Notes under the pieces: model-generated
What the model was told of the DNA's origin: nothing
Databases searched by the model: none
The model's input: only the letters and a program-made list of their open reading frames with translations
NCBI GenBank assembly: GCA_964521295.1
Contig: CAZFRF010000001.1
Span: 270,146-334,145 of the forward strand
Reading direction: 5' to 3'
Source: an uncultured Gammaproteobacteria bacterium
GTDB taxonomy: Bacteria > Patescibacteriota > Microgenomatia > Levybacterales > UBA12049
Length of the DNA stretch: 64,000 bases
Shown here: positions 16,256 through 40,729 of the stretch, one piece after another
Layout of the letters: each line of letters starts with the position of its first letter
How positions within the stretch are numbered: the first letter of the stretch is position 1
Program-made: the position numbers and the translations under genes

Positions 16256-17805
16256 TTTGCTTTATATACATAAACTAGCACTGCATTACTTACTTTTACT
16301 TCATAAACGAGATTATATTTTTTCCTTATTTTTTCGTCGTTAAAACCATCTCTAATTATATGATAATGATTAACAACCACATAATCGTATTCTGACTCAT
16401 CATTATATCTTGAATAATTAAAAATGGGATTTTTGGGAAATGTAATTTCCGGTGAAATAGCTAATCCAATTCTCGAATTATCAATGGCATTTTTATTCAA
16501 ATATATCCCGGCTTCTCTTTGCCCTTGGCCCCACCAGCCAATCTGGAATAGGTTGTATTTATATACATTATCTACTCCCCCAATTAATTCATTATAATAG
16601 TCTAAATAATAAGGGGAAACATATACTAAGCTAAGTAATAGATATATTCCAAAGAAAATTAAAATAATTATTTTCTGAAGATACCTTAGTCTTTCTAAGA
16701 CAAAATTCAACCCAACTGCTGAAATAATTGCAATTGCTGGATATATTTCAATAATATATCTAAGCCCATGCTGTCTCCATGAATAGAAAGAAAGCAGGAA
16801 AGGCACTATAAACCATAAAACAATTAGCCACTTTTGATAATTAATACTCTTTAAAACCTTAATCAAGCCTAGGAAAAACAAAACAATTATCACAACTGGT
16901 ATCGAGATAAAAAAATATACTAAATAATAAAAAATAGGCGTTATCCTTAAACTACCCATAAATACTTCTGGCGGTGACAGGGTAAAAATTAATGGGTTAG
17001 GTGAAAATTTAACCGACCAAAGCTTGTCATTTATCTCCATAATTTCTGAAAAATGAAGAACTGCCTGTGGCCAAACTGCAATAAAAACAAAACAAGAAAT
17101 AATAAAAACTTGAATAAAAATTTTAAAATATTTTTTAATATGCTCTTTTTTTTCTTTTTTTATAAAACTTTTACACTTAAACCACATTGCAAAACCAAGA
17201 ATTATAAAAAGAAGCAGATCACTCTGCTTTGCTTGCAATGCAAAACCTGTTAACACTCCTGCTAACAATATTCTTTTCTTAGTAGTTTCCTCTAATAACA
17301 ATAAATAAGAATATATTGCAATTGGATATATAAAAAGTTTTAAGCTTTCTGCAGTCACCAATTGAGACAATCCAACCGTAAAAGGCAACATTAAGTAAAT
17401 AAAACCACTTATTATACCTATATTAAAATTGAATATCTTACCTGAGATTAAAATTACAAATAATAATCCAATTGAAAACAAAACTGCTGATAAAATACGT
17501 GAAAACGTATAATCATAATTAAAAATTGCATTATTCTTAACAGTGGCTTCCTTGTCAAACACGGCACTTACTCCATAGATATATTTAACTAAAGGCGGAT
17601 GATCATATGATGTATAAAAATATTCATTATTAAAATCTCCCTTTTCAAAAATTTTAATAAATTTATATCCTTGCTCTATATATACGCTTTCATCCCAAGT
17701 CCTTCCAATTTCATTTAAGGTTGACAACCTTACTACTAACGAAAAGACAAAGAATAAGAATAAAATGAATACTTTTTTATAGATAATATTAATTTGCAAA
17801 TTCAT
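16252..17805 (-). CDS. GT-C fold membrane glycosyltransferase (GT39/GT83, ArnT/PMT-like)
   Basis: N-terminal TM followed by a periplasmic-loop DE motif (TWDESVY) and YDHPPL, both typical of the PMT/ArnT family. More than 12 TM helices. 517 aa. Confidence 0.6.
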   Translation of the reverse strand: MNLQINIIYKKVFILFLFFVFSLVVRLSTLNEIGRTWDESVYIEQGYKFIKIFEKGDFNNEYFYTSYDHPPLVKYIYGVSAVFDKEATVKNNAIFNYDYTFSRILSAVLFSIGLLFVILISGKIFNFNIGIISGFIYLMLPFTVGLSQLVTAESLKLFIYPIAIYSYLLLLEETTKKRILLAGVLTGFALQAKQSDLLLFIILGFAMWFKCKSFIKKEKKEHIKKYFKIFIQVFIISCFVFIAVWPQAVLHFSEIMEINDKLWSVKFSPNPLIFTLSPPEVFMGSLRITPIFYYLVYFFISIPVVIIVLFFLGLIKVLKSINYQKWLIVLWFIVPFLLSFYSWRQHGLRYIIEIYPAIAIISAVGLNFVLERLRYLQKIIILIFFGIYLLLSLVYVSPYYLDYYNELIGGVDNVYKYNLFQIGWWGQGQREAGIYLNKNAIDNSRIGLAISPEITFPKNPIFNYSRYNDESEYDYVVVNHYHIIRDGFNDEKIRKKYNLVYEVKVSNAVLVYVYKAK

Positions 17806-18904
17806 TTTTTATAAAACTAGTTTTACTTATTAATAATTTTTCTAACTCTTTTCCTTTGATTTTCCAATCCCATCTTTCAACCATTTCTTTTCTAGCATTC
17901 ATTCCCATTTTTTTTATTATATTTTCATTTCTTAATAGTCCGTCAATTTTTTGTGCAAATATTTTTGCATTCCGATTTAATAAATATCCTGTTTTAGAAT
18001 CAACTATTGTTTCTTGATGTCCCGCTTCATCAACTGCAATTACTGGCACACCACAAGACATTGCCTCCAGAGGAACCATACCCATTGGCTCCTTATAAGA
18101 TACAGAGATTAATATTTTAGATTTTCTATATACATTTATTAATTCATAATCCGATAACCACTCGTTTTCGAAAACAACGGCTCTAATCTTGGGGCTTAAT
18201 TCCATATTTTCAATGGTTTTCCTAAAAAAAGGATAACCATCTAGCTTATCAAAAGAACCAATAAATAATAAATCGAATTCTTTTTTTATTTTTTTTGGAA
18301 AGAATTGTTTTACATTAACTCCACAATGAACAACATCTCCATCGACCCCGTAAATTTTTTTAAATTGCCTTCGGGTATAATTTGAATTAAAAATAATATG
18401 GCAGGCGGATTTAATATTAAAAATATCAAGTTTTTTTCTTATATATCTATTTAAATTTTCGTAATACGTTCTAAATATGTCAACATTTACTGGTTTAAAT
18501 AGTTCTGGCTCATAAATGATTCTGTAATATGGATCATGGCAATAAAAAAACGAGGGTACTTTAAGATATTTTAAAATAAAAGGAGATTCAATAAATTGTG
18601 AGGCACAAACAAACACTAAATCATATTTTATACCAATATCTTTTCCTATTTTCCTATTTAAATTATTTAATTTTATAAGTTCAACTGTATCTTTATATAA
18701 TCTTACAAAAGGATTATTCCCTGTCCATTTTTTGACATGAAAAGAATATGAATAAATACGTGAATAAAAAGATTCTTCATTTTTTATAAAATCTATTGTG
18801 TATAAATCTACAGTATGACCAAGAATTTTAAGTTGCCTTGCGAACTCATTCGTAGACCTTCTTGCTCCTCCTTTATGTAATTCATGATAAACAGCTATTT
18901 TCAT
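17789..18904 (-). CDS. Glycosyltransferase family 4 (GT-B fold)
   Basis: The C-terminal EPMGMVPLEAMSCGVPVIA..D.GHQE motif (E-x7-E) is characteristic of GT4. Confidence 0.8.
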   Translation of the reverse strand: MKIAVYHELHKGGARRSTNEFARQLKILGHTVDLYTIDFIKNEESFYSRIYSYSFHVKKWTGNNPFVRLYKDTVELIKLNNLNRKIGKDIGIKYDLVFVCASQFIESPFILKYLKVPSFFYCHDPYYRIIYEPELFKPVNVDIFRTYYENLNRYIRKKLDIFNIKSACHIIFNSNYTRRQFKKIYGVDGDVVHCGVNVKQFFPKKIKKEFDLLFIGSFDKLDGYPFFRKTIENMELSPKIRAVVFENEWLSDYELINVYRKSKILISVSYKEPMGMVPLEAMSCGVPVIAVDEAGHQETIVDSKTGYLLNRNAKIFAQKIDGLLRNENIIKKMGMNARKEMVERWDWKIKGKELEKLLISKTSFIKNEFAN

Positions 18905-20124
18905 TTATTATTAAAAATTTTCCTTAAGAAATATAAGGAAACTGGAATAGGCACGATAACACCTAAGAGGGCAGCGAATGCAACGCCAAGTAATCCAAAA
19001 TAGGTTATTAAAGGGAAAATACATATTACTAAAACAATCAGGTTAATTAACGTAATTATTGATGAATAAATTTGCTTATTTACCGACAAAAACACAATTG
19101 CAGGAAAACCAAAGATTGAATGAACTACGCCCAATACGACTAAGATTTTTAAAATATTTACCATTGGTAACCATTGTTTTCCTAAAAAAAACTCAATCAA
19201 ACCATTAGCAAAGAAAAAAACAACAAAGCCAAATGGAACCGTTATCAATATCAATAATAATTCCGTTTTCAAAAAAGCTTTTCTTAACCTTTCTAAATCA
19301 TCAGAAAACTTTGAATATACCGGAAAAGTTACCCTTGAGATAACATCCGCAACATCTGTAATAGGTAACATTGCAATATTGTAAGACATCTCATACAAGC
19401 CAAGATTGTAAGTTCCTAGAAATTTACCAACAATAATATTGTCTAAATTATGAAACAAATAATTAAAAATTCCGCTTAACGTAACCCACTTACCTTGGTT
19501 GATTATTCTATAAATGTATAAACGTTTAAATTTTATCTGAGGCCTTGGTTTTATCAATAAAAAAGAAAGAATTACTTGAAAAATTACACCAGTTAACATG
19601 CCTATAACCAGACCAGAAATATTCTTAATTATTAAAACCAAAAATATTGTTGCCAACATGTCTATGAATGCTATTGACATTCTATAAATAAAATCTTTAT
19701 CAAAATTAATTTCTTTTTGAAATTTAATCTCTGCAGGATTAATAAACCCTCTTATTAAAGGTACAAAACTAAATAGAATTAAAATATTTTTTATATGCGG
19801 GGCCTTAAAAAAATCAGCAATAAACCCCGAAAATATTATAAATACAAAGAAAATTATAAAACCTCTAGCAATTGATACAATCCATGCAGAATTAATATAT
19901 TTACTCAAATTTTCCTTTTTTTGTATTAAAAAAACATTTACTCCTGTTTCTGTTAATGTTTCTAATAAGGCTAATATTAATAATGAAATACCAAAATCAC
20001 CAAATTCTCGTGGGGTTAAAATTCTAGCTAATATTAAAATTTTTAATAATGAAATACCTCTTATAAATATACTTTGGGCCCATGCCCACGAAAGACCATG
20101 AATAGTTCTAGAAGAATAACCCAT
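18901..20124 (-). CDS. Polysaccharide biosynthesis protein, Wzx-like flippase (MOP superfamily)
   Basis: 407 aa, about 12 TM helices. N-terminal GLSWAWAQSIFIRGISLLKILILARILTPREFG is typical of the Wzx/polysaccharide_synt N-terminus. Confidence 0.6.
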   Translation of the reverse strand: MGYSSRTIHGLSWAWAQSIFIRGISLLKILILARILTPREFGDFGISLLILALLETLTETGVNVFLIQKKENLSKYINSAWIVSIARGFIIFFVFIIFSGFIADFFKAPHIKNILILFSFVPLIRGFINPAEIKFQKEINFDKDFIYRMSIAFIDMLATIFLVLIIKNISGLVIGMLTGVIFQVILSFLLIKPRPQIKFKRLYIYRIINQGKWVTLSGIFNYLFHNLDNIIVGKFLGTYNLGLYEMSYNIAMLPITDVADVISRVTFPVYSKFSDDLERLRKAFLKTELLLILITVPFGFVVFFFANGLIEFFLGKQWLPMVNILKILVVLGVVHSIFGFPAIVFLSVNKQIYSSIITLINLIVLVICIFPLITYFGLLGVAFAALLGVIVPIPVSLYFLRKIFNNK

Positions 20125-20151
20125 ATTGGTGATTGAAATTATAACATTTTC

Positions 20152-21396
20152 ATGTTTATAATAATATGCTGCCCCATAAAAATGAAAATTAACCAGTGTA
20201 GATCTTGTGGATCAAAGAATTTATTAAAAATAGTATCTTTAGGTAAACAGTATTTGTCTGACTTTACTAAGACGAATAAGAAACCTAAATCCTTCCCCTT
20301 GACAATGATGGTATGTAAAAAATGTTTTCTAGTCCAATTAGACTACAATACTCCACAAAAATATTTATATACTCCTAGATATGGGTACAAATCAGGCATA
20401 AACCAAACAATGCACGATGAATTAAGAGGCATTGCTCAAGAAGCGTTTAAAAAAATCAAAAAAACAAAGGAAAAAATTGTAGTAATCGATATTGGCGCTA
20501 ACGATGGCACTCTACTAAGCTACTACCCAAAAAATCTACATAGAATTGCTGTTGAACCAATAAAAAAACTTGCAGAAATATCAAAGAAGCATGCTAATGA
20601 GGTTGTAAATAATTTCTTTAGTTATGAATCCTACAAAAGAAAGACAAAAAATTTACATGCAGATGTTATTTCTGCAATATCTTGCTTCTATGATATGGAA
20701 GATCCAAACAAATTTGTTGCTGATGTAAAGAAAATAATGAAAGAAGATGGAATTTTTATAATTCAACAAAATTATTTAGTTAGTATGTTAAAAATAAATG
20801 CATTCGACAATATCGTCCATGAACATTTAGAATATTACTCCTTACTATCCTTAAATAATCTTTTAGAAAAACATGGCATGGAAGTATTTGATGTTGAAAC
20901 AAGAACTTTAAACGGCGGAAGCTTCAGAACATATATTGCGCTAAAAGGGAAGAGAAAAATATCTAAAAGTGTTTTAGAGATGCAGAAGACGGAAAAAAGG
21001 CTAAAATTAAATAATAAGAAAATTTACCTCGATTTCGCTAAAAGAATCGCAAAAGAAAAAGAAAAAATTACAGAGTTTATTAAAAAAGAAGTTAAAAAAG
21101 GAAAAAGAGTTTATTTATATGGAGCTTCAACTCGAGGCAATACAATGCTTCAGTACTTTGGTCTTGACCATAAGCTTATTCAATTTGCAGTCGAAAGAAA
21201 TCCAGAAAAATTCGGAAAAATAATATCCTCAGTTGGGATACCAATTATTTCTGAGGAACAGGCCAGGAAAGATAAGCCAGAGTATATGTTAGTATTACCA
21301 TGGTTTTTCAAAGAAGAATTTCTAAAGAGAGAAAAAGATTATCTAAAAAAAGGCGGTCATTTTATCTTCCCCTTGCCTAAATTGGAAATTATCTAG
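20152..21396 (+). CDS. Sugar C-methyltransferase: N-terminal Zn-ribbon plus class I SAM methyltransferase plus C-methyltransferase C-terminal domain
   Basis: CRSCGS...CKKC zinc ribbon, SAM-binding VIDIGANDGTLL, and an NDP-hexose C-methyltransferase-like tail (TylCIII-like architecture). The true start is probably the ATG at about 20182 (MKINQCRSCG). Confidence 0.65.
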   Translation: MFIIICCPIKMKINQCRSCGSKNLLKIVSLGKQYLSDFTKTNKKPKSFPLTMMVCKKCFLVQLDYNTPQKYLYTPRYGYKSGINQTMHDELRGIAQEAFKKIKKTKEKIVVIDIGANDGTLLSYYPKNLHRIAVEPIKKLAEISKKHANEVVNNFFSYESYKRKTKNLHADVISAISCFYDMEDPNKFVADVKKIMKEDGIFIIQQNYLVSMLKINAFDNIVHEHLEYYSLLSLNNLLEKHGMEVFDVETRTLNGGSFRTYIALKGKRKISKSVLEMQKTEKRLKLNNKKIYLDFAKRIAKEKEKITEFIKKEVKKGKRVYLYGASTRGNTMLQYFGLDHKLIQFAVERNPEKFGKIISSVGIPIISEEQARKDKPEYMLVLPWFFKEEFLKREKDYLKKGGHFIFPLPKLEII

Positions 21397-22099
21397 TTAA
21401 TCTTAATTTAATAACATAAAACAAAGAAACTAATAGCTCTTGAATGTTAACATTTGATTTTCCATAAATTCTATAATTCCAAGTAATTGGTACCTCGCCG
21501 ATTAGGAATTTTTGTTTATTAATTTTATATAAAACTTCCGATAAAGTAATAAAGCCCTTTGATTCAATTCTTGTTTTTAACAAATAATCAATACTTTTTC
21601 TTGAATACAACCTAAAACCACTTGTAAAATCAGATACTTTAACATTTAACCAAAATTTTAAATAAAAATTTATAACTCTACTTAATATTGTTCTATTTTT
21701 TGTAATATTTTTAATTCTACTTCCTTTCAAGTATCTCGATCCAATAACCAAATCATATTGATTAGTTTTAATTTTATTTATAAATCTTTTAATTTCTGCT
21801 GCATCATGAGCTAAATCAGAATCCATCTCTAGGAAATAATGTATGTTTTTTAATTTATAAGCTTCCCTGAAGCCCAACATTACTGCACTTCCTCTTCCAG
21901 ACTTTTTCATACGTGAAATAAGCTTAACATTTGTATACAAACGCATGGCTTTTTTAATTTTTTCATTCTCTTCGGGCCTAGAATCATCTATTATAAAAAT
22001 CTTAAAAGAGGGATATGAATTCTTAATTTTTTTTACCAAAATTTTAAGGTTTTCGGATTCATTGTAGGATGGAATAATAACAGCAAAATTATTTTTCAT
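21389..22099 (-). CDS. GT2 glycosyltransferase, polyprenyl-phosphate sugar synthase (DPM1/GtrB-like)
   Basis: AVIIPSYNESENL, IIDDSRPE, MDSDLAH and the size (236 aa) match dolichyl/undecaprenyl-phosphate mannose or glucose synthases. Confidence 0.7.
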   Translation of the reverse strand: MKNNFAVIIPSYNESENLKILVKKIKNSYPSFKIFIIDDSRPEENEKIKKAMRLYTNVKLISRMKKSGRGSAVMLGFREAYKLKNIHYFLEMDSDLAHDAAEIKRFINKIKTNQYDLVIGSRYLKGSRIKNITKNRTILSRVINFYLKFWLNVKVSDFTSGFRLYSRKSIDYLLKTRIESKGFITLSEVLYKINKQKFLIGEVPITWNYRIYGKSNVNIQELLVSLFYVIKLRLTR

Positions 22100-24675
22100 T
22101 TTTTATAAATACTTATTTCAACAGGGCTTTGAACAATCGCAGCCATATAGTAGTTTAAATCATTTGTAAACAGAAATAAATATTTAAAATTAGGAGAAAA
22201 TTCTTTTATCAATTTATATTTATTTTTCTGTAAATTTTTATATATATCTTTTGTTTCTGAATTATGTTTATACATAGATTCAATACCAACGTTAGTTAGA
22301 ATTACATATTCAGGATAGGTTTTATCACTTGTTTGTATTATTTTGTATTTATATTTATTATTATTCTCGATCTTATACTGCTTAAAATAAAACTCTTTAA
22401 CAACCAAGTCTGGCAACCCTTGATAAATTGGAATATTTTGTATTCCAATTGTAGAATTTATTGGAATATTTTTATTTATCCAATACGTTGATGATTGACG
22501 AGGATCACTAAATAATTTTAGAGGCATCCATGAAAATGATTCAACTACCTGGAGAAGGATAATGAAAATTATAAAAATTAGAATTAACAAGTTATTAAAT
22601 CTTTTCAACAAAAACTTAATAAGATAACTAACAAAATATGCAAAAAATGGAATTAAAATTAATACTCGATTATTTGTAGCATCTAATTTTAAAGGAATTA
22701 AGCTACAGGCAAATAAAATAAAAATTATAATAAAAGTAATTAATGTTCTATTTTCAAAAATATATCTATATTTATTTTTTAAAATAAATATGTTTCCTAG
22801 TAAAATAGAAATAAAAAGAATCATACCTAAAATTGCAATAATATAAAAAGTATGACTAAAAAGAGTAGGAAATAAATCTATTAATAAATAAGGCCAAATT
22901 TTGTTTGTAATTTGAAAATTTGCCACATTAAAATCTGGTGTCCTAGATAAAGTAGATGAAAGATATTCATTTAAACTACCCTTAGCCAAAAGAATATCTA
23001 TGACTCCGAAAGATAAAAAAGTGGATATATATATCACTCCTCCCTTTATAAGAGTAAAGATATGACTTCTCCAATTTTTATTAAAAATAAATATTAATCC
23101 TAATATCGGAATAAGCGCAAAAGGTGAAAGCTTTACGGATAAAGCCAAGGCGGATAATAAACATGCAAAGTAAAAATAATAATACTTAAATTCTTTTACG
23201 TATTTCAGAATAAATAGTATTGATAATAATGTCCAAAACATTAAGGCAATATCGTACTTAAAATACCCACTTAACATTAGCCACATAGGATTAAAAGTAA
23301 AAAAGAAGGTTGAGATCACTGGATTAATTTTTAAAATTTTTTTAGATAAATAATAAAACGCAAGAATACTTAATATTCCAAACAAAATAGTATTTGTACG
23401 CAAAACAATAAATAAGACCTGTTGAATATCAATGTTTAATACAGATGATTTGATTAAAAAAGGATTTACGACTTTTATTACCATAAACGGAATTAAATAT
23501 AAACCCGTTAAGAAAAAATGGAATATTGATCCATTTGCGGAGCCAGAAATATTTGGAGAACCAAATTTAAATAAGTTTCTTACTGACTGACTTTGATGCC
23601 ACTCATCCATAAAGTAATTAAAAGGATGACTATTTCCAGGAATTCCCCAACTAATCTGCGCCAGGCAAGCCCCAATGTAAATTAATAAAATAATTAAAAG
23701 CATTCTTTGCTTAAACAGTTTTCTTGTTAATAAATTAAAATTTACACCTACAAAAAACGCCTTAACTGTTCCAGACAAAACAGCAAAATCTGCAATAAAT
23801 TGAATCAGCGGCAAAAATATTAAACCTTTAATATTTTTTACATATTTATAATTTTTAAGAATTATCCAGAACAAATAAACTATCGCCCCTCCAGTAATCA
23901 ATAAATTTAGATACAATGATTTCATAATTGGAATCAAAATTACTAAATAGAGAGCAATAAAATATCTATAAATAAGCCAAAAAACTTTTTCTCTAATAAT
24001 ACCCGACTCAATATCTCCATATGCAAATCTATAAAACATTTTAAAAGCTGATTTTATATTAGATCTAGGTTGCCAATAGACAATCGCGTTTTGAATAAAT
24101 TTAATATTAAAACCTTCGTCCTTTATTTTGTTTGCAAACACATAATCTTCATTGTGGGAATATTTAACATCAAAGCCCCCAATACTCGACCATACTTTTT
24201 TCCTTAAAGCCATTGATCTTGTAGCAGGTAAAAAAGTGTTTGGATCCACTTTATCTGGCATAACCAATGCATATGGTATTAATGACTTTTGAAAAATACT
24301 TGCATGTTTCCCTTTATAATATCCAGCAACAACATCTACATTTGGAGAAAAAGATGAATACATATTTTTTACCCAATCTTTATGAAGCTCACATCCAGAA
24401 TCAGTAATTAGTATAATCTCAAATTTTGATTTTTTAATCGCTAAATTTCTACCTAAAGACCGATTCCCTTTTTTAACAAAAAATTTGATATTTAATTTTT
24501 TATGTTTCGAAGAAATTTCTTGGATTTTATTAACAGTTTTATCATTACTTCCCCCGTCAACAATTATAATTTCCGATGGTAATAGTGTCTGCTTGACTAC
24601 AGACTCTAAAAACCTACTAACTGTATCCTCTTCGTTTAAAACAGTACAAATTAATGAACATTTAGCCTTAGCCAT
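22096..24675 (-). CDS. Fusion protein: N-terminal GT2 glycosyltransferase plus large C-terminal polytopic membrane domain
   Basis: N-terminal CSLICTVLNEEDTV, IIIVDGGSNDKT, ITDSGCE, NEDYVF are GT2 motifs. About 15 TM helices and a Lys/Tyr-rich soluble tail follow. 859 aa. Same architecture as 14042-16255. Confidence 0.7.
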   Translation of the reverse strand: MAKAKCSLICTVLNEEDTVSRFLESVVKQTLLPSEIIIVDGGSNDKTVNKIQEISSKHKKLNIKFFVKKGNRSLGRNLAIKKSKFEIILITDSGCELHKDWVKNMYSSFSPNVDVVAGYYKGKHASIFQKSLIPYALVMPDKVDPNTFLPATRSMALRKKVWSSIGGFDVKYSHNEDYVFANKIKDEGFNIKFIQNAIVYWQPRSNIKSAFKMFYRFAYGDIESGIIREKVFWLIYRYFIALYLVILIPIMKSLYLNLLITGGAIVYLFWIILKNYKYVKNIKGLIFLPLIQFIADFAVLSGTVKAFFVGVNFNLLTRKLFKQRMLLIILLIYIGACLAQISWGIPGNSHPFNYFMDEWHQSQSVRNLFKFGSPNISGSANGSIFHFFLTGLYLIPFMVIKVVNPFLIKSSVLNIDIQQVLFIVLRTNTILFGILSILAFYYLSKKILKINPVISTFFFTFNPMWLMLSGYFKYDIALMFWTLLSILFILKYVKEFKYYYFYFACLLSALALSVKLSPFALIPILGLIFIFNKNWRSHIFTLIKGGVIYISTFLSFGVIDILLAKGSLNEYLSSTLSRTPDFNVANFQITNKIWPYLLIDLFPTLFSHTFYIIAILGMILFISILLGNIFILKNKYRYIFENRTLITFIIIFILFACSLIPLKLDATNNRVLILIPFFAYFVSYLIKFLLKRFNNLLILIFIIFIILLQVVESFSWMPLKLFSDPRQSSTYWINKNIPINSTIGIQNIPIYQGLPDLVVKEFYFKQYKIENNNKYKYKIIQTSDKTYPEYVILTNVGIESMYKHNSETKDIYKNLQKNKYKLIKEFSPNFKYLFLFTNDLNYYMAAIVQSPVEISIYKK

Positions 24676-24722
24676 ATTGTGGTTGAATTATAGCACCTCC
24701 TACATTAGAATACAGAGATATT

Positions 24723-26582
24723 ATGGGATTCATTAATTCTTTATTTACTAATATAATTCAGAATTTTAATTATGTAAAAAATGATTTTACGGGATTTAAT
24801 TTAGATATTAGTTTTATACTAAATTTTATTTTCAATTTAATCGTAACAGTAATTATATTTAATCTAACATATTTATTTGGAAAGAAAATATTTTCATTAT
24901 TTAATAAAAACTTTGAAAGTAAACCATACTCTTATCTTGTCTCAATTGGAATAGGATATATTTTTTCATCATTAGGAATTACCTTACTCGGCTTCTTTCA
25001 TTTGCTTTACCCTCAATTAATCTCAATCTATCTTTTATGCATTATTTTTATTTCATTTTTTCCATTTAATAATTTAAAAAAAACATTTTTTGAATTATTT
25101 ATATATATTAAAAATGAAATTATCTATTTCAAGCAATTTAAGGCAATTTTTATTGTTGCTTTTCTTTTTATTTTACTCGGATTTATTAATCTTATTAATC
25201 CCGAATACAGAGAAGATCAATACCATGTTGACTTACCAAGGCAGTATTTAAAATTTAACACAAATATGATTCCACCAAAGGAACAACTACATGTTTCAGC
25301 AGCTCCTCAAACCGCAGAATCGTATTATTTAATTGGAATATTTTTATTATCTAAAGAAGCAGCTAGATTTTTACATTTTTACTTTTATTTACTAACAATC
25401 TTAGCATTGATAAACTATTCAAAAATAAGCAGTAAATATAAATTTGCTATCTATACACCTCTACTATTAGTAAGCAGTCCTGTCATTATTAAAGAAACCT
25501 CATCCATGTATACAGACTTCCAATGGCTCTTCTGCTTACTCATTTCAACTTTAATATTAATTGATCAGTATAAAAATAAATTAGCTACTTATTCATTGTC
25601 TGGATTATTCTTTGGTGGCATAGTTGCTTCAAAACTCTGGACAATTATATTTTACCCAGTGTTCATTATTTTTCTTACTTTTCTAAATAAATTTAAAAAA
25701 ATAACAATTAAATATATAGTATTATTTATTTCTTTTTCTCTTGTTACGTATGGAATTTGGATAATAAGATCATATATTTTAACAGGTAATCCGTTATATC
25801 CAGCATTTATTGATCATCTAAATCTTGATGGGACAAGAGAGAAAATAAATTTGTTTCAGTATATTGGAATAAATTATGGGTTACTTAATCCAAAGTATTT
25901 TATAAATGTATTTTCTCCTTTGTTTTTTGTTGGAATATTATTTTGTATTTTAAATTTCAAAAACATTTATAAAAAAATAAATCTATTACAAATTAATAAA
26001 ATAATTTTCATCACGTTTATTACATATTTACTAGTCCAATATATCTTTGGGAGATATATGATTGGACTCTATATTTTCTTAATCTTCATTTCCGCTCTTT
26101 CAATTAATGAGTTTGTTAAAAAAAATAAATTACTAAACGCTGTTTTAATATTTATGCCAATAATTGTATTTATTTATTATTTTATAAATTCTTTTTTAAT
26201 ATTGCCCTACTCGCTTGGCTTCAGCGATAAAAATAATTATTTAACGCGAATTTTAATAAGAGATAATTCAAGTTATTTTGATTTTGGGAAACAGTTTAAT
26301 AAATATATAAAAAGTGATGATGTTGTTGGATTCTATAATTTCCATGGGTATTATTATGCAGACTTTCAATATACTGATGTAAATTTTTTAATTAATAAGA
26401 GAGAACAGTCGATTCTGACATTGAAAAAAAATGGCATAAAATTATTAATATTAAGAGGTGATAATTTTAAATTTTTCTGTAAGAAATATTCACTAAAAGA
26501 TTGTGATACATATCAACCCAAACTTATTTCGCAATATAATTTCTTTCCTTTCATATTTTTATATTCTTTTAAGAATTTATGA
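24723..26582 (+). CDS. Polytopic membrane protein (possible GT-C-like), function unknown
   Basis: 619 aa, more than 12 hydrophobic helices with a C-terminal soluble region. Lies inside the glycosylation locus. No motif identified. Confidence 0.4.
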   Translation: MGFINSLFTNIIQNFNYVKNDFTGFNLDISFILNFIFNLIVTVIIFNLTYLFGKKIFSLFNKNFESKPYSYLVSIGIGYIFSSLGITLLGFFHLLYPQLISIYLLCIIFISFFPFNNLKKTFFELFIYIKNEIIYFKQFKAIFIVAFLFILLGFINLINPEYREDQYHVDLPRQYLKFNTNMIPPKEQLHVSAAPQTAESYYLIGIFLLSKEAARFLHFYFYLLTILALINYSKISSKYKFAIYTPLLLVSSPVIIKETSSMYTDFQWLFCLLISTLILIDQYKNKLATYSLSGLFFGGIVASKLWTIIFYPVFIIFLTFLNKFKKITIKYIVLFISFSLVTYGIWIIRSYILTGNPLYPAFIDHLNLDGTREKINLFQYIGINYGLLNPKYFINVFSPLFFVGILFCILNFKNIYKKINLLQINKIIFITFITYLLVQYIFGRYMIGLYIFLIFISALSINEFVKKNKLLNAVLIFMPIIVFIYYFINSFLILPYSLGFSDKNNYLTRILIRDNSSYFDFGKQFNKYIKSDDVVGFYNFHGYYYADFQYTDVNFLINKREQSILTLKKNGIKLLILRGDNFKFFCKKYSLKDCDTYQPKLISQYNFFPFIFLYSFKNL

Positions 26583-28324
26583 TAACACCATATAAATTAG
26601 TATTCATAAACCTGTTATTTTTAATTTTTTTAACTTTGCTTATTTTTATATTCAAAATAATTTTTCCAAAAAAGAAAGTTAACCCTTTATTTTTACTTTT
26701 ATTATTAAGTCTAGGTACATCAATTAGCATATTACGCATTGGCTCATATGAAAGTGGGGATTTCAATATACATGCCTACAGGTCCATTGAATTCTATAAA
26801 AATATCCTTGAAGGATTCATTTATCCTTCTTGGGCAGGAGACTTAAACGCATTATATGGTTTACCATTATTTATGTTTAATTATACTTTACCTTACTACT
26901 TTACAACGATCGCGCACCTTATAGGATTTTCATTTATTAATTCGTTAAAATTTTTTCTAATTACTAATTTAGTATTAACAAGTTTATTTAGTTATATTTT
27001 AGGATTAACAGTATTTAATAATAACAAGTTGCATGCATTTGTATTTGCAATCTTATATTCTTTTTTTCCTTATCATCTGATTTCTGTGCATTATAAGATC
27101 ACACTTGGTGAAATATCTTCCTATACATTACTTCCTTTATTTTTTTATTTTGTCTCACTAACTAATAAAACTAAAAAAAATATATTTCTTATACATTCAT
27201 CGTTAATTTATTATTTTATATTTATTAGTCATATTTTCATAGCAATTTTTACTATTCCACTATTGTTCTCATATTTATTTATAAATGGCAATGATAAATT
27301 AAGAAATTTAATCAAATTTTCTTTTATAGTGATTTTTTCATTAACATTATCAGCATACCAATGGGTACCAAGTATTTTATTTCAATCTCAACTTTATATA
27401 ACACATATTAATATAGATCTAAACAACATATTCTTCCCATCAATCATCGATCTACTATATTCGCCTTGGAGATTTGGTTTTTTATTTCAAGGGCCAAACG
27501 GAGAAATATCTTACTTACTCGGTTACACTCAAATAGCATTAATTTTAATTACGATAATTTTTATATATAAACGTAGATTTTTAAATTTTGAAAAAAAACA
27601 AATATACTTTTGGCTTATTTTTTTCGTTTTATATTTATTTCTACTACTCCCTCAATCTAAACTATTTTGGGACTTTATACCTATATTGGGTGGCTCTGGA
27701 CCACATAGACTACTAGTTATTATGGGTTTAATAACAACTTTTATCTGCTCTATTACAATAAGTAAAATAAAAAATAAAAAAGTAATTTACTTAATAATAT
27801 TATTTGCTATAGGATCAACCATTTTAAACTGGGGACATAGAAAAGTTATACCCGAAATAAACGATGAATATTTAATAAAAACTCTTCCTCTTAGCACTTA
27901 TAATATAGACAATCATTTTTATGCAGCTACAATTTATCAAAACCCAAAAAAGCTATGGGAAAATATGATTCCAATTAATTCATTTCAACCGAACGAATCA
28001 ATTTCTTCCATTATTATCAAAAGATCTCAAAATGAACATATATATAAAATGTCTGTGAAATACAATACAATCGTAAGTGAAAATACTTTATATTTTCCTG
28101 GATGGAATGTATATGCAAATAATAATAAATTAAAAATTTACCCAAATAATAAGGGGCACATTTCTTTTGCTATTAATAAAGGAGAATATATTGTTTTAAT
28201 TAAATATGAGGATGTTTATATTATCAGCTTACTTAAAAAAATAAGTTTATTTTTATTTATAGCATCTCTACTCACCATAGTCCTTATTAAAATTAAATCT
28301 TCCAAAGTTTTATATAAACATTAG
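26579..28324 (+). CDS. Polytopic membrane protein (possible GT-C-like), function unknown
   Basis: 581 aa, more than 12 hydrophobic helices plus a C-terminal beta-rich domain. Translationally coupled to the upstream gene (4-bp overlap). Confidence 0.4.
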   Translation: MITPYKLVFINLLFLIFLTLLIFIFKIIFPKKKVNPLFLLLLLSLGTSISILRIGSYESGDFNIHAYRSIEFYKNILEGFIYPSWAGDLNALYGLPLFMFNYTLPYYFTTIAHLIGFSFINSLKFFLITNLVLTSLFSYILGLTVFNNNKLHAFVFAILYSFFPYHLISVHYKITLGEISSYTLLPLFFYFVSLTNKTKKNIFLIHSSLIYYFIFISHIFIAIFTIPLLFSYLFINGNDKLRNLIKFSFIVIFSLTLSAYQWVPSILFQSQLYITHINIDLNNIFFPSIIDLLYSPWRFGFLFQGPNGEISYLLGYTQIALILITIIFIYKRRFLNFEKKQIYFWLIFFVLYLFLLLPQSKLFWDFIPILGGSGPHRLLVIMGLITTFICSITISKIKNKKVIYLIILFAIGSTILNWGHRKVIPEINDEYLIKTLPLSTYNIDNHFYAATIYQNPKKLWENMIPINSFQPNESISSIIIKRSQNEHIYKMSVKYNTIVSENTLYFPGWNVYANNNKLKIYPNNKGHISFAINKGEYIVLIKYEDVYIISLLKKISLFLFIASLLTIVLIKIKSSKVLYKH

Positions 28325-29324
28325 TCACTTCCTCCCATGTCAAAAGAATCTTGGAAGCACTTGAATAATTCAATATATCTTTATTTAATAAATATTTTTT
28401 TATAGAATTTGAGACTTGATAACTGTCTTTACATATAAATATGTTTTTGCTGAATGGCGTCATCTCTAAATAATCTTTTTTAATTTCGTTATTATACACA
28501 GCGAAAATAGGTTTTTTGGCAGCTAATGCCTCAAGTATTCCTAAATACCTAGAAACAAATACATATGAATAGTTGGGTAAAAATTTTTCAACATTATATA
28601 CAAATCCTTTAAAGGATACGTTTAATTTATGTCTTTTAACAAATCTAAAAGCATTTTTAAATTGTTCACCATTCCCATATACATCTAGACTTAGTTCATT
28701 ATTTTCATCTTTTAATATTTTTATCGCTTTCAAATAATCCATTATTCCAGCTTCCTCTTCTAATCTACCAATATACATTACTTTATTTGAAAATTTGATT
28801 TTACTGTTATTAAATTTTTGCTTTTCTACTCCTCCAAAAATAACGAAAGTTGGATTTGTTTTATACCATTTTTTAAAAAAATCTCCTACACATATATTTC
28901 CTCTTGAAAGTTTTTCCGCAAGTTTATGCATAAACTTCGCTTTTAAGTTTGGGATATTATTCCCCTCATAACCGTGAAAAGTTGTATAGATTTTTTTATT
29001 AAAAAATAAAAATCTAAATGGTAAATACCAATAGAAAACATCATGACAATGTACAATATCTGCTTGTCTTATTTCGTTCAGGTATTTAAATAAATTTATC
29101 CAAATAATAAACTTTTTAAGCTTATTCTCTTTTATTGAAGGTATGAAAATTACCTCCTCACCATTATTGTGTAGGTTTAATTTTTTATTATTGACTACAG
29201 GTTCTTCGGCAATAATTTTAACTGAGTATCCTTTTTTAATTAATTCTTTACTAATTTGCCAAATATGCTTTTCTACTCCTCCAATATTTGGATAATAAGA
29301 TCTTGTTAAAAATAAAATTTTCAT
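28293..29324 (-). CDS. Glycosyltransferase family 4 (GT-B fold)
   Basis: N-terminal MKILFLTRSYYPNIGGVEKH is a typical GT4 N-terminal donor-substrate loop. 343 aa. Confidence 0.7.
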   Translation of the reverse strand: MKILFLTRSYYPNIGGVEKHIWQISKELIKKGYSVKIIAEEPVVNNKKLNLHNNGEEVIFIPSIKENKLKKFIIWINLFKYLNEIRQADIVHCHDVFYWYLPFRFLFFNKKIYTTFHGYEGNNIPNLKAKFMHKLAEKLSRGNICVGDFFKKWYKTNPTFVIFGGVEKQKFNNSKIKFSNKVMYIGRLEEEAGIMDYLKAIKILKDENNELSLDVYGNGEQFKNAFRFVKRHKLNVSFKGFVYNVEKFLPNYSYVFVSRYLGILEALAAKKPIFAVYNNEIKKDYLEMTPFSKNIFICKDSYQVSNSIKKYLLNKDILNYSSASKILLTWEEVTNVYIKLWKI

Positions 29325-29371
29325 ATCCAGATTCTAACACAATCTAAGAAGCTAAAGAAGATAAAAAATCA

Positions 29372-29995
29372 TTATTCTGTTATTTTCTCGATTCCCTCAG
29401 GAGACTCTATTTCAATTGAATTTAAACAAGAATTGTATTTTCCAGTTACTATAACTAAATTGTTCGAAAATTTATAAAAATCGACGTCCTTATTATAAGG
29501 GAGATAGATTGCTTGATCTGATGAATCTGTTAACAAAACTGTTCGTTTTGTTATTTTCTTTTGTGGAGTAGAAATTATATTTAATACATAATCGACAGGT
29601 CCAACCCTATCTGTATATATTTCCCTAAAATTCAAGATTTTTACATATCCCAAAATACTTTGAGTTCCTTTTTCACAAATAACTTTATTTCCGCCAAATA
29701 ATCCAAAAACAGACAGAAACATTAATACACCAGCTATACCTAAACTTCCTTTAAACGTAAAACTAAATGCTTTTTGTTTTTTAATTTCCTCAAGTAGTTC
29801 AATAACTCTTCTTAATGGATTTCCAATTCTTATATCTAATAAATCGTCCTCGTCTTTATAGTTACCTGTATGACTATAAATAAATTTTTCTAAAGGATTT
29901 TTTGCTGATTTATAATCTGGAGCGCTAATAAAATGGCCTTTTTCGTCTCTAGGTCTACTCTTTGTCACTTCACTTCTTAATTTATCAGCAGACAT
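29372..29995 (-). CDS. Hypothetical membrane-anchored protein
   Basis: 207 aa ORF with one central TM helix (LGIAGVLMFLSVFGLFGG). No recognisable domain. Confidence 0.4.
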   Translation of the reverse strand: MSADKLRSEVTKSRPRDEKGHFISAPDYKSAKNPLEKFIYSHTGNYKDEDDLLDIRIGNPLRRVIELLEEIKKQKAFSFTFKGSLGIAGVLMFLSVFGLFGGNKVICEKGTQSILGYVKILNFREIYTDRVGPVDYVLNIISTPQKKITKRTVLLTDSSDQAIYLPYNKDVDFYKFSNNLVIVTGKYNSCLNSIEIESPEGIEKITE

Positions 29996-30033
29996 AATTA
30001 ATTATGAATATATATCATTACAAAAATCAAGTG

Positions 30034-30159: not shown

Positions 30160-30720
30160 ATGAGGTTTCTTCAAAAAATCTGGGCGTTTTTACTTGATAG
30201 CGCCCAAACATTTTTAATAGCAGCAGCAATATTTTTGGTAATTTATCTATTTTTATTTAGACCATATGAAGTCCAAGGAGAATCAATGTATCCTAATTTT
30301 TATAATAAGGAATATGTTTTAACTAATTTAATTATTTTAAGATTTAAAGCTCCCAAAATGGGAGATGTGGTCGTATTTAAATCTCCTGCTGAACCAGAAA
30401 AAGACTATATCAAAAGAGTAATTGGTGTTCCAGGAGATAAGGTGATGATAAAAGACGGAAGCGTATACTTAAATGGTAAAATATTAGACGAGTCATCTTT
30501 TCTCAGCTCTAATGTAAAAACCTTCCCAGGCGGTTTCCTTCAAGAGGGACAGGAGGTAACAGTTCCAGAGGAAAAATACATTGTTCTTGGTGACAACCGA
30601 GGCGCGAGTTCTGATTCAAGAGAATGGGGATTTGTTTCCAAAAATGCAATTATCGGAGAGTCATTATTTGTTTATTTACCCGTAAATCGAATGAGGTTAG
30701 TTGAAAATCCCTATAATTAA
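30160..30720 (+). CDS. lepB: Signal peptidase I
   Basis: N-terminal TM, catalytic-Ser box (GESMYPNF), Lys box (YIKRVIGVPGD) and GDNRGASSDSREWGFV box E. Confidence 0.85.
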   Translation: MRFLQKIWAFLLDSAQTFLIAAAIFLVIYLFLFRPYEVQGESMYPNFYNKEYVLTNLIILRFKAPKMGDVVVFKSPAEPEKDYIKRVIGVPGDKVMIKDGSVYLNGKILDESSFLSSNVKTFPGGFLQEGQEVTVPEEKYIVLGDNRGASSDSREWGFVSKNAIIGESLFVYLPVNRMRLVENPYN

Positions 30721-36189: not shown

Positions 36190-36756
36190 CTATGGCATCT
36201 GATTTCTATGTATGGGAACAAAGAATGCATTTTCTGGTGGTTTATAAATAAAAATTGCTTCAGGATGTGGATTTTCTTCGGTAGGTGTATCTAAATGCAC
36301 TATACTTGGATCACCAGAAGCCTTGTCCCATTCATAATCCAAAAACTTCAAACCGTTTTTATTCACTTCTACAGCAACATAATGACCAATATTTCCCCTA
36401 TACCTTAAGCTCCTCCCGTTAGCAAATACTGCCAATTTTTGATCTTGAGGTAAACAATCTGCTGTATAAACCTCAATTGGTTCAAATTGTGCAGATAATG
36501 GAAAACTTATCATTCTTGCCTTTCGAGTTGGAACAGCCTCACCTGGTTGTAATACAAAAAAACCGGTTCGTAAGGGACTTTCTTCATCTAATCTGTAATT
36601 TTGCATCATTACAGTCTCGACCAAAGAAACCTGAGGACCTTTTATTGTTCTTAGCTGCATTCCCGGCCAGACTTGATTAATTGGTAATATTCTTGATTCG
36701 TTATCGGGTGAACGCATATTCAAGCAGATAGTAACATTGACATTTAGATCTGTCAA
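36190..36756 (-). CDS. Hypothetical protein, compositionally atypical (GC-elevated)
   Basis: 188-aa uninterrupted ORF in a locally GC-richer stretch (visual estimate about 40% against about 30% background). Pro/Gln/Arg-rich. No recognisable domain. Confidence 0.4.
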   Translation of the reverse strand: MTDLNVNVTICLNMRSPDNESRILPINQVWPGMQLRTIKGPQVSLVETVMMQNYRLDEESPLRTGFFVLQPGEAVPTRKARMISFPLSAQFEPIEVYTADCLPQDQKLAVFANGRSLRYRGNIGHYVAVEVNKNGLKFLDYEWDKASGDPSIVHLDTPTEENPHPEAIFIYKPPENAFFVPIHRNQMP

Positions 36757-36768: not shown

Positions 36769-39393
36769 TCAATGATCTATAGAAGGAAATTTATTTGCAG
36801 ACATATTTAAATTTCCCACTTCAGTCCATAATGACAAATCCAATACGCCTGAGCCTTGAGTATCCTCTGGGTAATTCAAGTTTTTAGTTAAACTTTTTAT
36901 TTTATTTTTTAATTGTTCCACAGTCATATCTGGATAAACTTGCTTAAGCAAAGCAATTGCTCCTGCTACATGAGGGGTGGCCATACTCGTACCACTCCAG
37001 GAAGTATATGCTTTATATGTATCATTACAACTTGGGTCAGTAACTATAATGGATTTTGCAGAACAAATATCTACACCCGGTGCTAAAATATCAGGCTTAT
37101 GAATGACTTCATTGTTCCAATTAACTGGACCAGTAGAGCTAAAATTTGCAATTTTTAAACTTTTATTAACAGCCCCAACTGTCAAAGCTTTTGTCGCTAC
37201 TCCGGGAGAGCGTATTGTTGCAGGCCTAGGCCCCTCATTACCAGCAGCTACCACTGAAATTATTCCCGCATCAGCCGCATTATTTAAGACAATTGACTGA
37301 GGGTCGCCAGGCCCACAATCAGCAGTGTAATTACGTTCACAATCAGCTCCTAGGCTTAAATTTACGACGTCAATATTATTCGTTGGATCAGAATCCATTC
37401 TTGTTGCAATGGCTACATCATATGCAGCTATTAATTCAACTTCTGAACCAGTTCCCGAATAGTCTAAAACTTTATAAGAAATAATATTTGCACCTGGAGC
37501 AACGCCTTTCAATATCCCATTCCCTGCAACGATATTGGCAACATGTGTTCCATGACCATGATCATCTAAAGCATCATAATTACCACTTATAAAGTTATAT
37601 CCTCCAACCACTTTTGAATTATAAACATTTGGCAAAGCATAGTTTTCGTTTGGATCATAAACTAAACAAGATATTTTAAATTTTTCTGTGCTAGAATCAG
37701 AAAAACAAAATCTATTTCCCAAAACCTCAATAATACTTCCGCTGGTAAAAATAGACATTTTTTCATATGTTTTTTTTATAAAGTTATAGGCATAAATTCG
37801 GTTATCAACTGCTCTTGAATAAAATACTGCATTTAACCCTAATTTAGCAGCGTATCGATCCCTTGAATCTACCCAATAATTTGACTGGATACCAAATTTA
37901 TTCTTACTAGAATCAGCATAATTATTAGGAGAAATAAAGGTTTCTTGTTTTGTTTTTAAATCAAATAGATAATATGATCCTGAATTATCTTCTTGATCAC
38001 GACATGTGGATTGGTATAAAAGCTTATCATTTTTATAATCTTGTAGATTACCCATGTGCGGGGGGTTAATCTCTCGCTTTTGACCTGTATCTATATTTTG
38101 AATAAATATTTTTCTAACCTTACACCACTCATCTGAATCATTACTCACGGAATAGGCAATTTGCCTATCTTTATTGCTCGCAAAATAACCTGCGTAATTC
38201 TTATTACTAAATTTTGCTAAAGTTTTTTGTGTACCATTTTTTAAATGATAGGTCATTAAATTCATTCCTTCATTCTTACGCGTTGTAGGATCAAAATAAA
38301 TTAAAGTGTTATCATCGATAGCAAAATCCAGTAAAAGCGAAAAATTTCCCTTATCTGCTCTTAAGTTATTTATTTTTTTTATTTTTTTTGTATCAAAGTT
38401 ATATGCAAATAAACCTGCATTATTGTTATCTGCCGCAAAATAGACAAGATATGCATTAGTTGCCTGGACTTTATAAATTAATGGATTATTTAAACCCGGT
38501 GTATGTAATTTAATTACTGATTTATTTTTATTAGCAAATATATATTGAGTAACCTGATCTATACCACTAATATAAATTACGGATTTTGAATTTAAAGCAA
38601 ACACCTGATCAGTTAAACCATTGTAATCTCTATGCTTAATAGCCTTATCTAAATCGAAGTTTGCCGGGACCACAAAATTCCTTTCTGTAATTGGTGAACT
38701 ACCTAATCCAAGATGAGTATAATCAACGCCAGTATCCATAACTGCAACATTTATTCCTGAACCATCAATATTTTTATTATTAAGATCTTTATATGTCCAA
38801 ATTTTATCTGCTCCTATTAAAGGTACTGATGCATATAAACTGGCTTTTATTTCAATATTTTTATATACACCAGATACCTGAGGCAGTGTTTTTAATAATT
38901 GTGCTTCAGAATCAGAAATATCTAATGCAAAACCATTTAATGCATAAGAATATTCTTTGATAATATTCAACGTATTGTTTTCAGATGGACTTGTGCGCAA
39001 CATGTCTGCATTAACATTTCTTGCACTTTTTTTGTTTAATATTCTTAATGCCAACGTTTTAAAAGATTCTCTATCTGCTTTTAAAGTAACTTGATTTAAT
39101 TTTTTCTTTACATCTACTGAATTATTTAAATTTCTTAAAACAACTATATATCCTGTTGACTTTTGATTACCCAAAGCAGCAGAGTTTGTCGATAAACCTG
39201 ATGAGGCATTTTGCTTAATACTTTGCGTATTTCGTAAAGAAAGAACTGTTATTGGAATTGCCAAAACTATAACTAAAACTGCTAGTAATTTAAAAGATTT
39301 GAAATTAATTAGTTTTCTGAAGTTTATTTTTTTCTGCTGGTTTATATTATCAGTTTGTTCAAAAGATAAATTCGTATTTAAGTTTTGGTCCAC
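36769..39393 (-). CDS. Subtilisin-like serine protease (peptidase S8) with N-terminal TM anchor, I9 propeptide and a large inserted repeat domain
   Basis: Asp box VAVMDTGVDYTH, His box DDHGHGTHVANIVAG, Asn box VVAAGNEGP, Ser box GTSMATPHVAGAIALL. An inhibitor-I9-like propeptide (YIVVLRN...ALNGFALDISDSEAQLL) is present. About 370 aa are inserted between the Asp box and the VVGGYNF strand. Confidence 0.85.
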   Translation of the reverse strand: MDQNLNTNLSFEQTDNINQQKKINFRKLINFKSFKLLAVLVIVLAIPITVLSLRNTQSIKQNASSGLSTNSAALGNQKSTGYIVVLRNLNNSVDVKKKLNQVTLKADRESFKTLALRILNKKSARNVNADMLRTSPSENNTLNIIKEYSYALNGFALDISDSEAQLLKTLPQVSGVYKNIEIKASLYASVPLIGADKIWTYKDLNNKNIDGSGINVAVMDTGVDYTHLGLGSSPITERNFVVPANFDLDKAIKHRDYNGLTDQVFALNSKSVIYISGIDQVTQYIFANKNKSVIKLHTPGLNNPLIYKVQATNAYLVYFAADNNNAGLFAYNFDTKKIKKINNLRADKGNFSLLLDFAIDDNTLIYFDPTTRKNEGMNLMTYHLKNGTQKTLAKFSNKNYAGYFASNKDRQIAYSVSNDSDEWCKVRKIFIQNIDTGQKREINPPHMGNLQDYKNDKLLYQSTCRDQEDNSGSYYLFDLKTKQETFISPNNYADSSKNKFGIQSNYWVDSRDRYAAKLGLNAVFYSRAVDNRIYAYNFIKKTYEKMSIFTSGSIIEVLGNRFCFSDSSTEKFKISCLVYDPNENYALPNVYNSKVVGGYNFISGNYDALDDHGHGTHVANIVAGNGILKGVAPGANIISYKVLDYSGTGSEVELIAAYDVAIATRMDSDPTNNIDVVNLSLGADCERNYTADCGPGDPQSIVLNNAADAGIISVVAAGNEGPRPATIRSPGVATKALTVGAVNKSLKIANFSSTGPVNWNNEVIHKPDILAPGVDICSAKSIIVTDPSCNDTYKAYTSWSGTSMATPHVAGAIALLKQVYPDMTVEQLKNKIKSLTKNLNYPEDTQGSGVLDLSLWTEVGNLNMSANKFPSIDH

Positions 39394-40399: not shown

Positions 40400-40729
40400 T
40401 TACCTATTTCGAGGAATACCTAATGCTCTCATTCTTTGATGAGCTCTTTCCATACAACTGGTGTGCTTTACATATCCATTACTTACACTTTCCCTCCATG
40501 AATCTGGACTACCTGTCACATTTACAGGTATTGATCTCACTCTTTCTAAAAGCCGAACCTGGACTGTATCAACTAATGAAACTGGGTCTGGCTCTTGATC
40601 TACAGGTGCACATAAAGCTTCAAAAGGAACAATTGGAGGAACTTCTTCAACTCGCTCGCCAAGCGTAAAGTAATGCTGAAGACTTTGCCTACTTCCAACC
40701 TCAGCAGATTCTATGTAAGAAGATCTCAT
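40400..40729 (-). CDS. Hypothetical protein, compositionally atypical
   Basis: 109-aa ORF in a GC-elevated patch. An alternative + strand frame (40423-40668) is also open. The minus strand is preferred because it is longer and co-directional with dus. No domain recognised. Confidence 0.3.
   Translation of the reverse strand: MRSSYIESAEVGSRQSLQHYFTLGERVEEVPPIVPFEALCAPVDQEPDPVSLVDTVQVRLLERVRSIPVNVTGSPDSWRESVSNGYVKHTSCMERAHQRMRALGIPRNR

Follow-up and report, generated by a model that had tools for sequence, protein, structure and literature searches.

The 64,000-nucleotide stretch of DNA analysed here, to which we refer as the window, belongs to contig CAZFRF010000001.1 of the bacterial assembly GCA_964521295.1. 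On its reverse strand it carries a gene for a subtilase of family S8 in which the catalytic domain is interrupted, between the Asp and His boxes, by a long segment that is predicted to fold as a seven-bladed beta-propeller. Subtilases are among the best-studied proteases, and accessory domains, such as PA, P-domain, fn3 and jelly-roll, explain much of their specificity. The gene starts with a GTG codon and its product has 874 amino acids; an identical protein, P0001, is found in an NCBI-derived protein collection. The features of the gene and of its product are collected in Table 1.

Table 1. Features of the subtilase gene, with positions in the window and residues of the 874-residue product (pLDDT, predicted local distance difference test; ORF, open reading frame; AF2, AlphaFold2).
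Feature	Residues	Position	Strand	Basis
Whole gene, pre-pro-subtilase with predicted nested propeller	1-874	36769..39393	-	ORF list; Pfam S8 and I9; identical P0001
Hydrophobic helix SFKLLAVLVIVLAIPITVLSLR after a Lys/Arg-rich stretch, signal peptide or signal anchor	33-54	39232..39297	-	AF2 helix; Kyte-Doolittle maximum 2.9 at residue 36
I9 propeptide (intramolecular chaperone/inhibitor of subtilases)	82-183	38845..39150	-	Pfam PF05922, 30.6 bits (cutoff 21.2)
N-terminal S8 piece with the Asp box	187-231	38701..38835	-	Alignment with Tk-SP 131-156; pLDDT 93-97; DSSP strand 215-220; D220 invariant in 36 sequences
Catalytic Asp, D220 in VMDTGVDYTH	220	38734-38736	-	Checked by codon
Predicted nested seven-bladed PD40/TolB-type beta-propeller	232-591	37621..38700	-	hhalign self-repeats; AF2; Foldseek; profile hits
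Predicted blades	about 265-295, 305-343, 357-394, 404-442, 450-487, 516-545, 554-578			Blade sequences
C-terminal S8 piece with H614, N719, S803 and conserved Cys pairs 685/693 and 777/789	592-860	36814..37620	-	phmmer; Foldseek; codons
Catalytic His, H614 in DDHGHGTHVA	614	37552-37554	-	Checked by codon
Oxyanion-hole Asn, N719 in AAGNEGP	719	37237-37239	-	Checked by codon
Catalytic Ser, S803 in SGTSMATPH	803	36985-36987	-	Checked by codon

An interrupted S8 catalytic domain behind a propeptide

The Pfam model Peptidase_S8 (PF00082) matches residues 211-847 of the window protein in a single hit of 182.4 bits (cutoff 21.8) that spans model positions 1-286 of 288. Therefore, the entire catalytic domain is present, with a large gap that HMMER has bridged. 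The triad residues follow each other in the order Asp-His-Ser and lie in the signature motifs DTG, HGTH and GTSMA, accompanied by the GN of the oxyanion-hole Asn, which is the combination that defines S8 members. In an alignment of 36 family sequences, D220, H614 and N719 are invariant, and S803 is conserved in at least 90%. What sets the protein apart is the spacing of these residues. The Asp and His are separated by 394 residues, as against 33-91 (median 56) in 49 relatives that have no insert; the distance from His to Ser is 189 residues, and the chain ends 71 residues past S803. As judged from its sequence, the catalytic domain is thus complete yet interrupted, and its triad may come together in three dimensions.

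The two parts of this domain find the same partner among solved structures. In a phmmer search of the PDB, residues 204-229, with the Asp box, align with residues 131-156 of Tk-SP, the subtilisin-like protease of Thermococcus kodakarensis, and residues 593-832 align with residues 159-388 of the same protein (E 1e-40), while nothing aligns in between. Foldseek likewise matches the C-terminal catalytic piece to Tk-SP, Vpr and subtilisins, with a root-mean-square deviation of 2.2-2.8 A. The catalytic domain is an ordinary S8A subtilase, and its nearest solved relatives are Tk-SP (3afg/9ues) and Vpr (8jmw), two 'pyrolysin-like' S8A enzymes that provide the best catalytic-domain matches, at 37-39% identity and a root-mean-square deviation of 2.7-3.6 A. 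Both share with the window protein an N-terminal propeptide and the Asp-His-Asn-Ser arrangement; unlike it, they have a normal Asp-His spacing and no propeller, and Tk-SP ends in a C-terminal beta-jelly-roll that is absent here.

Ahead of the catalytic domain, the protein has the layout of an exported pre-pro-enzyme. The helix at residues 33-54 is its sole hydrophobic segment, and a C-terminal anchor was looked for in the protein without any being found. A hydrophobic segment is present at the N-terminus of 55 of 57 family members and at the C-terminus of one of the 57, and the motif IKQNASSG that follows the helix is invariant in three close homologs. The I9 propeptide is detected in 30 of the 36 aligned members, and the AF2 model of this region has a beta-alpha-beta-beta-alpha-beta pattern. 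A gene for a type I signal peptidase (LepB), identified by reading its translation, lies in the window at 30160-30720. In addition, the mature region contains exactly eight cysteines, all of which are kept in the close homologs, and their spacing and the adjacency of the strands suggest the pairs 424/464, 563/576, 685/693 and 777/789. Together with the N-terminal export signal, these conserved cysteines indicate an extracellular enzyme.

The original prediction, which was made from the sequence alone, called the protein membrane-anchored, and this is doubtful. Because the hydrophobic helix precedes the I9 propeptide, autoprocessing of the propeptide should free the mature enzyme from it; autocatalytic removal of the propeptide is usual in subtilases. 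Moreover, there is no C-terminal anchor, and the segment itself may also be a cleaved signal peptide.

The segment between the Asp and His boxes

The borders of the insert follow from a comparison with the closest insert-free relatives. These have the sequence DTGVDYTHxDLGGCFGxGCKVxGGYDF, whereas the window protein has DTGVDYTHLGLG, then about 360 residues, and then NSKVVGGYNF; therefore, the insert comprises residues 232-591, and this alignment gives its size as about 355-360 residues. The break between DTGVDYTHLGLG and KVVGGYNF falls in the loop after the Asp-bearing strand and immediately before the next core strand, at about positions 42/43 of subtilisin BPN'.

The insert is made of repeats that go beyond what chance would produce. 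When the profile of the 36 aligned inserts was compared with itself by hhalign, it gave off-diagonal matches with 99% probability (E 6.7e-18), at register shifts of about 44-59 residues and their multiples. Structure prediction is consistent with these repeats forming a propeller. With the family alignment, AF2 modelled the full-length protein with a pLDDT of 79.9 and a predicted template-modelling score (pTM) of 0.70, the insert being mostly at 80-95, and modelled the insert alone with a pLDDT of 83.9, a pTM of 0.85 and 28 strands. These predicted strands are read as seven blades of four. From the order of the strands in the model, strand 241-246 probably completes the last blade, at 554-578, in a velcro closure; in that case the entry and exit of the chain would coincide, as is suitable for a nested domain. 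The model also contains a low-confidence loop at 491-511, and two of the conserved Cys pairs, 424/464 and 563/576, lie within the insert.

Searches of structures and of sequences lead to the same kind of fold. Foldseek matches the insert model to seven-bladed propellers in the PDB, with E down to 6e-11 and a template-modelling score of about 0.55; among them are G-beta, Cdc20, BamB, Kelch, tricorn, acylaminoacyl peptidase and prolyl endopeptidase (POP). Against the PDB sequences, the insert profile matches TolB (7mx5, 4.6e-10), tricorn (1.2e-8), POP (3.2e-5), acylaminoacyl peptidase (1.3e-4) and dipeptidyl-peptidase IV (DPP-IV, 1e-3). When a profile of three inserts was searched against representative proteins (see below), the weakest hits were to propeller proteins of the FG-GAP_2, Kelch, PD40 and DUF5050 types, and one of the 36 family members has a DUF5050 match at 3e-5. 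Taken from profiles and models, a fair wording is that the insert appears to be a remote member of the PD40/TolB-like propeller group. TolB, of the Tol-Pal system, is the best hit, and the match spans about four blades with the same repeat signature. Nevertheless, in TolB the propeller is six-bladed and periplasmic, serves to bind Pal and has no enzyme part, while the window insert has seven predicted blades and stands inside a protease.

The propeller is not likely to hang loosely from the catalytic domain. In the 36-sequence alignment, complete or almost complete invariance is seen for L230, G231 and R238 at one end of the insert and for C563, C576, Y579, Y585 and N592 at the other, and the AF2 model has a pLDDT of 87-93 at both junctions. 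This strong conservation, with the confident modelling, suggests that the propeller is attached rigidly.

Much of this had been anticipated. The original prediction described four S8 boxes with an abnormal separation of Asp and His, and D220, H614, N719 and S803 bear this out; its insert of about 370 residues is close to what the alignment gives. The three degenerate repeats of about 45 residues that it quoted lie at 315-341, 364-391 and 411-442, and its likening of them to a PD40/TolB-like propeller is upheld by the profile matches to TolB, tricorn and POP and by the seven blades obtained from AF2 and Foldseek. A canonical PA or fn3 domain, the alternative named there for the insert, is ruled out by the absence of Pfam hits to either and by the propeller fold in Foldseek. 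Likewise, no Pfam hit to a PA domain (PF02225) was obtained between the His and the Ser of the window protein. PA-domain subtilases (plant SBTs/cucumisin, C5a peptidase, lactocepin, pyrolysin) resemble it in having a whole domain nested in the catalytic domain, but theirs is of another fold and is placed in the His-Ser interval.

Family, relatives and genomic surroundings

The arrangement is not confined to this window. Against 1.84 billion representative proteins, a profile built from three inserts gave 84 hits, 58 of which have E <1e-10. When the three close homologs and P0163 are also counted, the Asp box lies 347-423 residues before the His box in 68 of 89 proteins, and 64 of these 68 have the Ser motif too. 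The insert is found at an identical site in at least 68 clusters (50% identity), and at the same site in all members of the 36-sequence alignment, which speaks for a protein family rather than a one-off. The original prediction was thus right that the arrangement is unusual, but it is not singular, and a large insertion between Asp and His is already known from tripeptidyl-peptidase II (TPPII).

Close homologs are few. In a word-indexed search, only P0002 (68% identity) and P0003 (47%) were found, and the insert is present in both. A word-based search with the full-length alignment added only P0163. With the insert alignment, such a search gave no hits even though the database contains P0001-P0003, which reflects a limit of word-based candidate selection. 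Two scans of genome contigs and a first metagenome scan detected no relatives with narrow search patterns, which does not show their absence. A further family member outside the window, P0067, has 1019 residues, is 37% identical and has the same Asp-propeller-His design, with Asp 201 and His 588. Its contig is as long as that of P0001 (935,984 bp), and the two proteins are probably paralogs within one genome.

The family members that bear source names (P0065, P0073, P0163) all come from metagenome-assembled genomes (MAGs) of Nanoarchaeota/Woesearchaeota, which are DPANN archaea. Thus, the family seems to span bacteria and DPANN archaea and, as the named members are from DPANN while the window is bacterial, gene transfer across domains, between two groups of ultra-small organisms, is hinted at. 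In other members, further modules are attached, namely CBM96, dockerin, PA14, Big (Big_7) and CARDB; these modules, and the dockerin-bearing glycoside-hydrolase-like genes beside one member, point to an extracellular setting. There are also giant members of 2300-3474 residues (P0076, P0078, P0080, P0087, P0096 and others), a few of which have more than one S8 domain; P0080, for instance, has one standard and one propeller-bearing catalytic domain.

The closest catalytic relatives that have no insert, P0004-P0009 (e.g., P0008, from a Candidatus Diapherotrites MAG), are 45-47% identical to the window protein and also combine an S8 domain with a propeller. However, their propeller belongs to a different repeat family (FG-GAP/VCBS) and is C-terminal instead of nested, and their Asp-His loop is short. 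In P0004-P0009 and P0011-P0019, taken together, the C-terminal propellers are of the FG-GAP/VCBS type (archaeal and metagenomic proteins) or of the BNR/sortilin type (Bacillus, Neobacillus and actinobacterial proteins), so S8 proteins with an appended propeller are common among these relatives, and the pairing of subtilase and propeller recurs in this branch in differing arrangements. In a neighbour-joining tree of the catalytic core, built without bootstrap, the insert-bearing proteins interleave with S8 proteins that have C-terminal FG-GAP propellers, and a single gain of the insert is not resolved.

A propeller nested between the Asp and the His of a subtilase is unrepresented among the solved structures that were searched. 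No Pfam or NCBIfam model, solved structure or open-access paper on such an arrangement was found, although this is not proof of absence, and the open-access literature searched for propeller-bearing subtilases, DPANN subtilisins and details of the pyrolysin and TPPII inserts held nothing relevant. The window protein represents an undescribed subfamily.

As for the genomic surroundings, the window encodes a bacterial DnaE, as well as bL21, bL27, ParB, FtsW and LepB, which were identified by reading their translations and are supported by the Pfam-annotated syntenic locus L001. Its guanine-cytosine (GC) content is low, at 24-37%, and the length of the contig, about 0.94 Mb, suggests that the genome is small. 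The gene order dus, S8, small ORF and ileS is kept in two relatives, whose whole region is also syntenic, while the neighbours of distant family members are unrelated (acetyl-CoA synthetase, peroxiredoxin, SufBD, MFS transporter, PCMT and, in one case, adjoining dockerin-bearing glycoside-hydrolase-like genes). A functional operon with the neighbouring genes was consequently rejected, as the order is kept only where everything around it is kept as well.

Some of the neighbours deserve a mention in their own right. The small ORF at 36190-36756 (reverse strand) lies 12 bp downstream of the protease gene and is listed with 188 amino acids, although translation probably begins at the Met of codon 14. 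Its product is 81% and 59% identical to those of the two syntenic relatives, which makes it more conserved than the protease, and has an invariant C-terminal NAFFVPxHRxQMP; no Pfam or NCBIfam hit and no hydrophobic N-terminus were found in it. Between dus and a PMT_2 gene there is a putative gene of about 110 codons (40400-40729, reverse strand) that has no family hit, overlaps opposite-strand ORFs in the window and has a counterpart in L001 at 4662-4994. Finally, the block at about 10000-30000, where the GC content is 24-29% as compared with 31-37% elsewhere in the window, holds a surface glycosylation/polysaccharide cluster with a Wzy_C ligase/polymerase-like protein, three PMT_2 glycosyltransferases, GT2 and GT1/GT4 enzymes and a Wzx-type flippase. 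The same block also encodes two large proteins, one without a hit (24723-26582) and one with only a weak hit (26579-28324).

What the nested propeller may do

On balance, we lean towards a reading in which the protein is an exported S8A pre-pro-subtilase whose fixed, nested propeller serves as a substrate-selecting exosite or a partial gate. The protein would be exported through the Sec pathway and would then fold with the aid of its I9 propeptide. Self-cleavage of the propeptide would also part the enzyme from the N-terminal hydrophobic segment, and thus the mature enzyme would be released and would act as a serine endopeptidase outside the cell. That the enzyme is active is supported by catalytic residues that are invariant or nearly so in 36 diverse members and by motifs that are kept in 64 of 68. 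The propeller could be a platform that binds proteins or peptides and so chooses the substrates that reach the cleft. PD40 propellers are known to bind ligands in TolB and to limit the access of substrates in prolyl oligopeptidase, DPP-IV, acylaminoacyl peptidase and tricorn, and the strict nested position, with its conserved junctions, implies that the geometry of the propeller relative to the catalytic domain matters. Where a reduced genome leaves an organism reliant on outside peptides or on the surface of a host, such a selection of substrates would be fitting. The original prediction had suggested a module that recognises substrates or a host surface in an episymbiont; both this role and that lifestyle are presumptive.

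Several points weigh against this reading. From the textbook topology of subtilisin, position 42/43 presumably marks the N-terminus of an edge strand close to calcium site A, some 15-25 A from the triad, and a propeller inserted so far from the triad may leave the cleft wholly uncovered. The Pfam PD40 (PF07676) and TolB_like models miss the single insert sequence, which has no Pfam hit at E up to 10, so that the repeats are assigned from similarity between profiles. That the signal or anchor and the propeptide are cleaved is an assumption drawn from other subtilases. Lastly, no conserved gene neighbourhood that would point to a partner was seen in either the syntenic relatives or the distant members.

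A stricter version, in which the propeller is a true lid over the active site, would let in only unfolded chains or short peptides, and would turn an S8 endopeptidase into an oligopeptidase whose gating had arisen by convergence with that of prolyl oligopeptidase, DPP-IV and tricorn. Most of the significant PDB hits of the insert profile are indeed propellers of gated peptidases (tricorn, POP, acylaminoacyl peptidase, DPP-IV), the propellers of POP and acylaminoacyl peptidase are also matched by Foldseek, and the junctions appear rigid and conserved. In prolyl oligopeptidase, DPP-IV and acylaminoacyl peptidase (S9) and in tricorn (S41), a PD40-type propeller similar in profile and fold to the window insert accompanies a serine-protease domain, but there it forms a separate N-terminal or adjacent domain and is not nested. 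Besides, their catalytic domains are of other clans (an alpha/beta hydrolase or the tricorn core), while that of the window protein is S8, so the resemblance is limited to the propeller. The top hit, TolB, is a binding module and not a lid, the topology argument given above would place the insertion point distal to the cleft, and a closed lid would get in the way of the I9 propeptide, which has to bind to the cleft while the enzyme folds. We therefore consider a true lid unlikely. An extension of this idea is comparably improbable; here, a capping propeller would make a gated protease for peptides only, an independent reinvention in clan SB of the design of prolyl oligopeptidase and tricorn, which would have spread between bacteria of the candidate phyla radiation (CPR) type and DPANN archaea for harvesting peptides from hosts or the environment while sparing folded surface proteins.

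Equally doubtful is a role of the propeller in adhesion or retention, by which it would localise the released protease at the cell's own envelope or at a host surface and would have little effect on the bonds that are cut. TolB-type propellers are known to bind envelope proteins, and TolB is the top hit, while the mature enzyme is otherwise without an anchor. Other family members have added carbohydrate-binding or dockerin modules, the closest insert-free relatives bear C-terminal FG-GAP/VCBS propellers, as if a propeller were wanted in this clade wherever it is placed, and the window holds the large surface-glycosylation cluster. Nevertheless, a simple retention module is more usually C-terminal, as it is in those relatives, and the strictness with which the nesting site and its rigid junctions are kept across 68 clusters suggests a fixed geometry relative to the catalytic domain.

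Far less probable is a role as an assembly scaffold, with oligomerisation and activation on assembly, as for the Asp-His insert of TPPII (S08.090, 3lxu). TPPII is a solved S8 enzyme that has a large insert in the same interval, of about 190-200 residues, its Asp box being near 44 and its His box near 272. However, its insert is not detectably related to that of the window protein, since 3lxu is not among the hits of the insert profile at E up to 1, and by its sequence it is not a propeller. It also comes after the second core strand, the equivalent of KVVGGYNF, and not before it (a position read from the sequence by eye). In addition, TPPII is a cytosolic giant homo-oligomeric exopeptidase, unlike the window protein, which has neither a homologous Asp-His insert nor the long C-terminal domains on which TPPII assembly depends.

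An artefact or a dead gene, be it a chimeric assembly, a fused gene pair, an intein-like mobile insertion or an inactive pseudo-protease, might be suspected from the odd Asp-His spacing and from the lack of a clear Shine-Dalgarno sequence before the GTG start, but it can practically be dismissed, as the reading frame is continuous, the same architecture is kept in at least 68 clusters from independent NCBI, JGI, ENA and Logan assemblies, synteny is retained in two relatives, all catalytic residues are conserved, and Pfam-type scans of the protein and of the insert gave no hits to intein or transposase families.

DPANN archaea and bacteria with small genomes presumably live at the expense of other cells, and little is known of the enzymes that they export. 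Even if the propeller does no more than retain the enzyme, the protein remains a clear instance of one domain nested in another, which is of use for annotation and for protein engineering. If instead substrates are selected or gated by the propeller of this subtilase, the family would add a new case of convergence in protease design and would open a way to learn how such organisms acquire peptides or alter surfaces.

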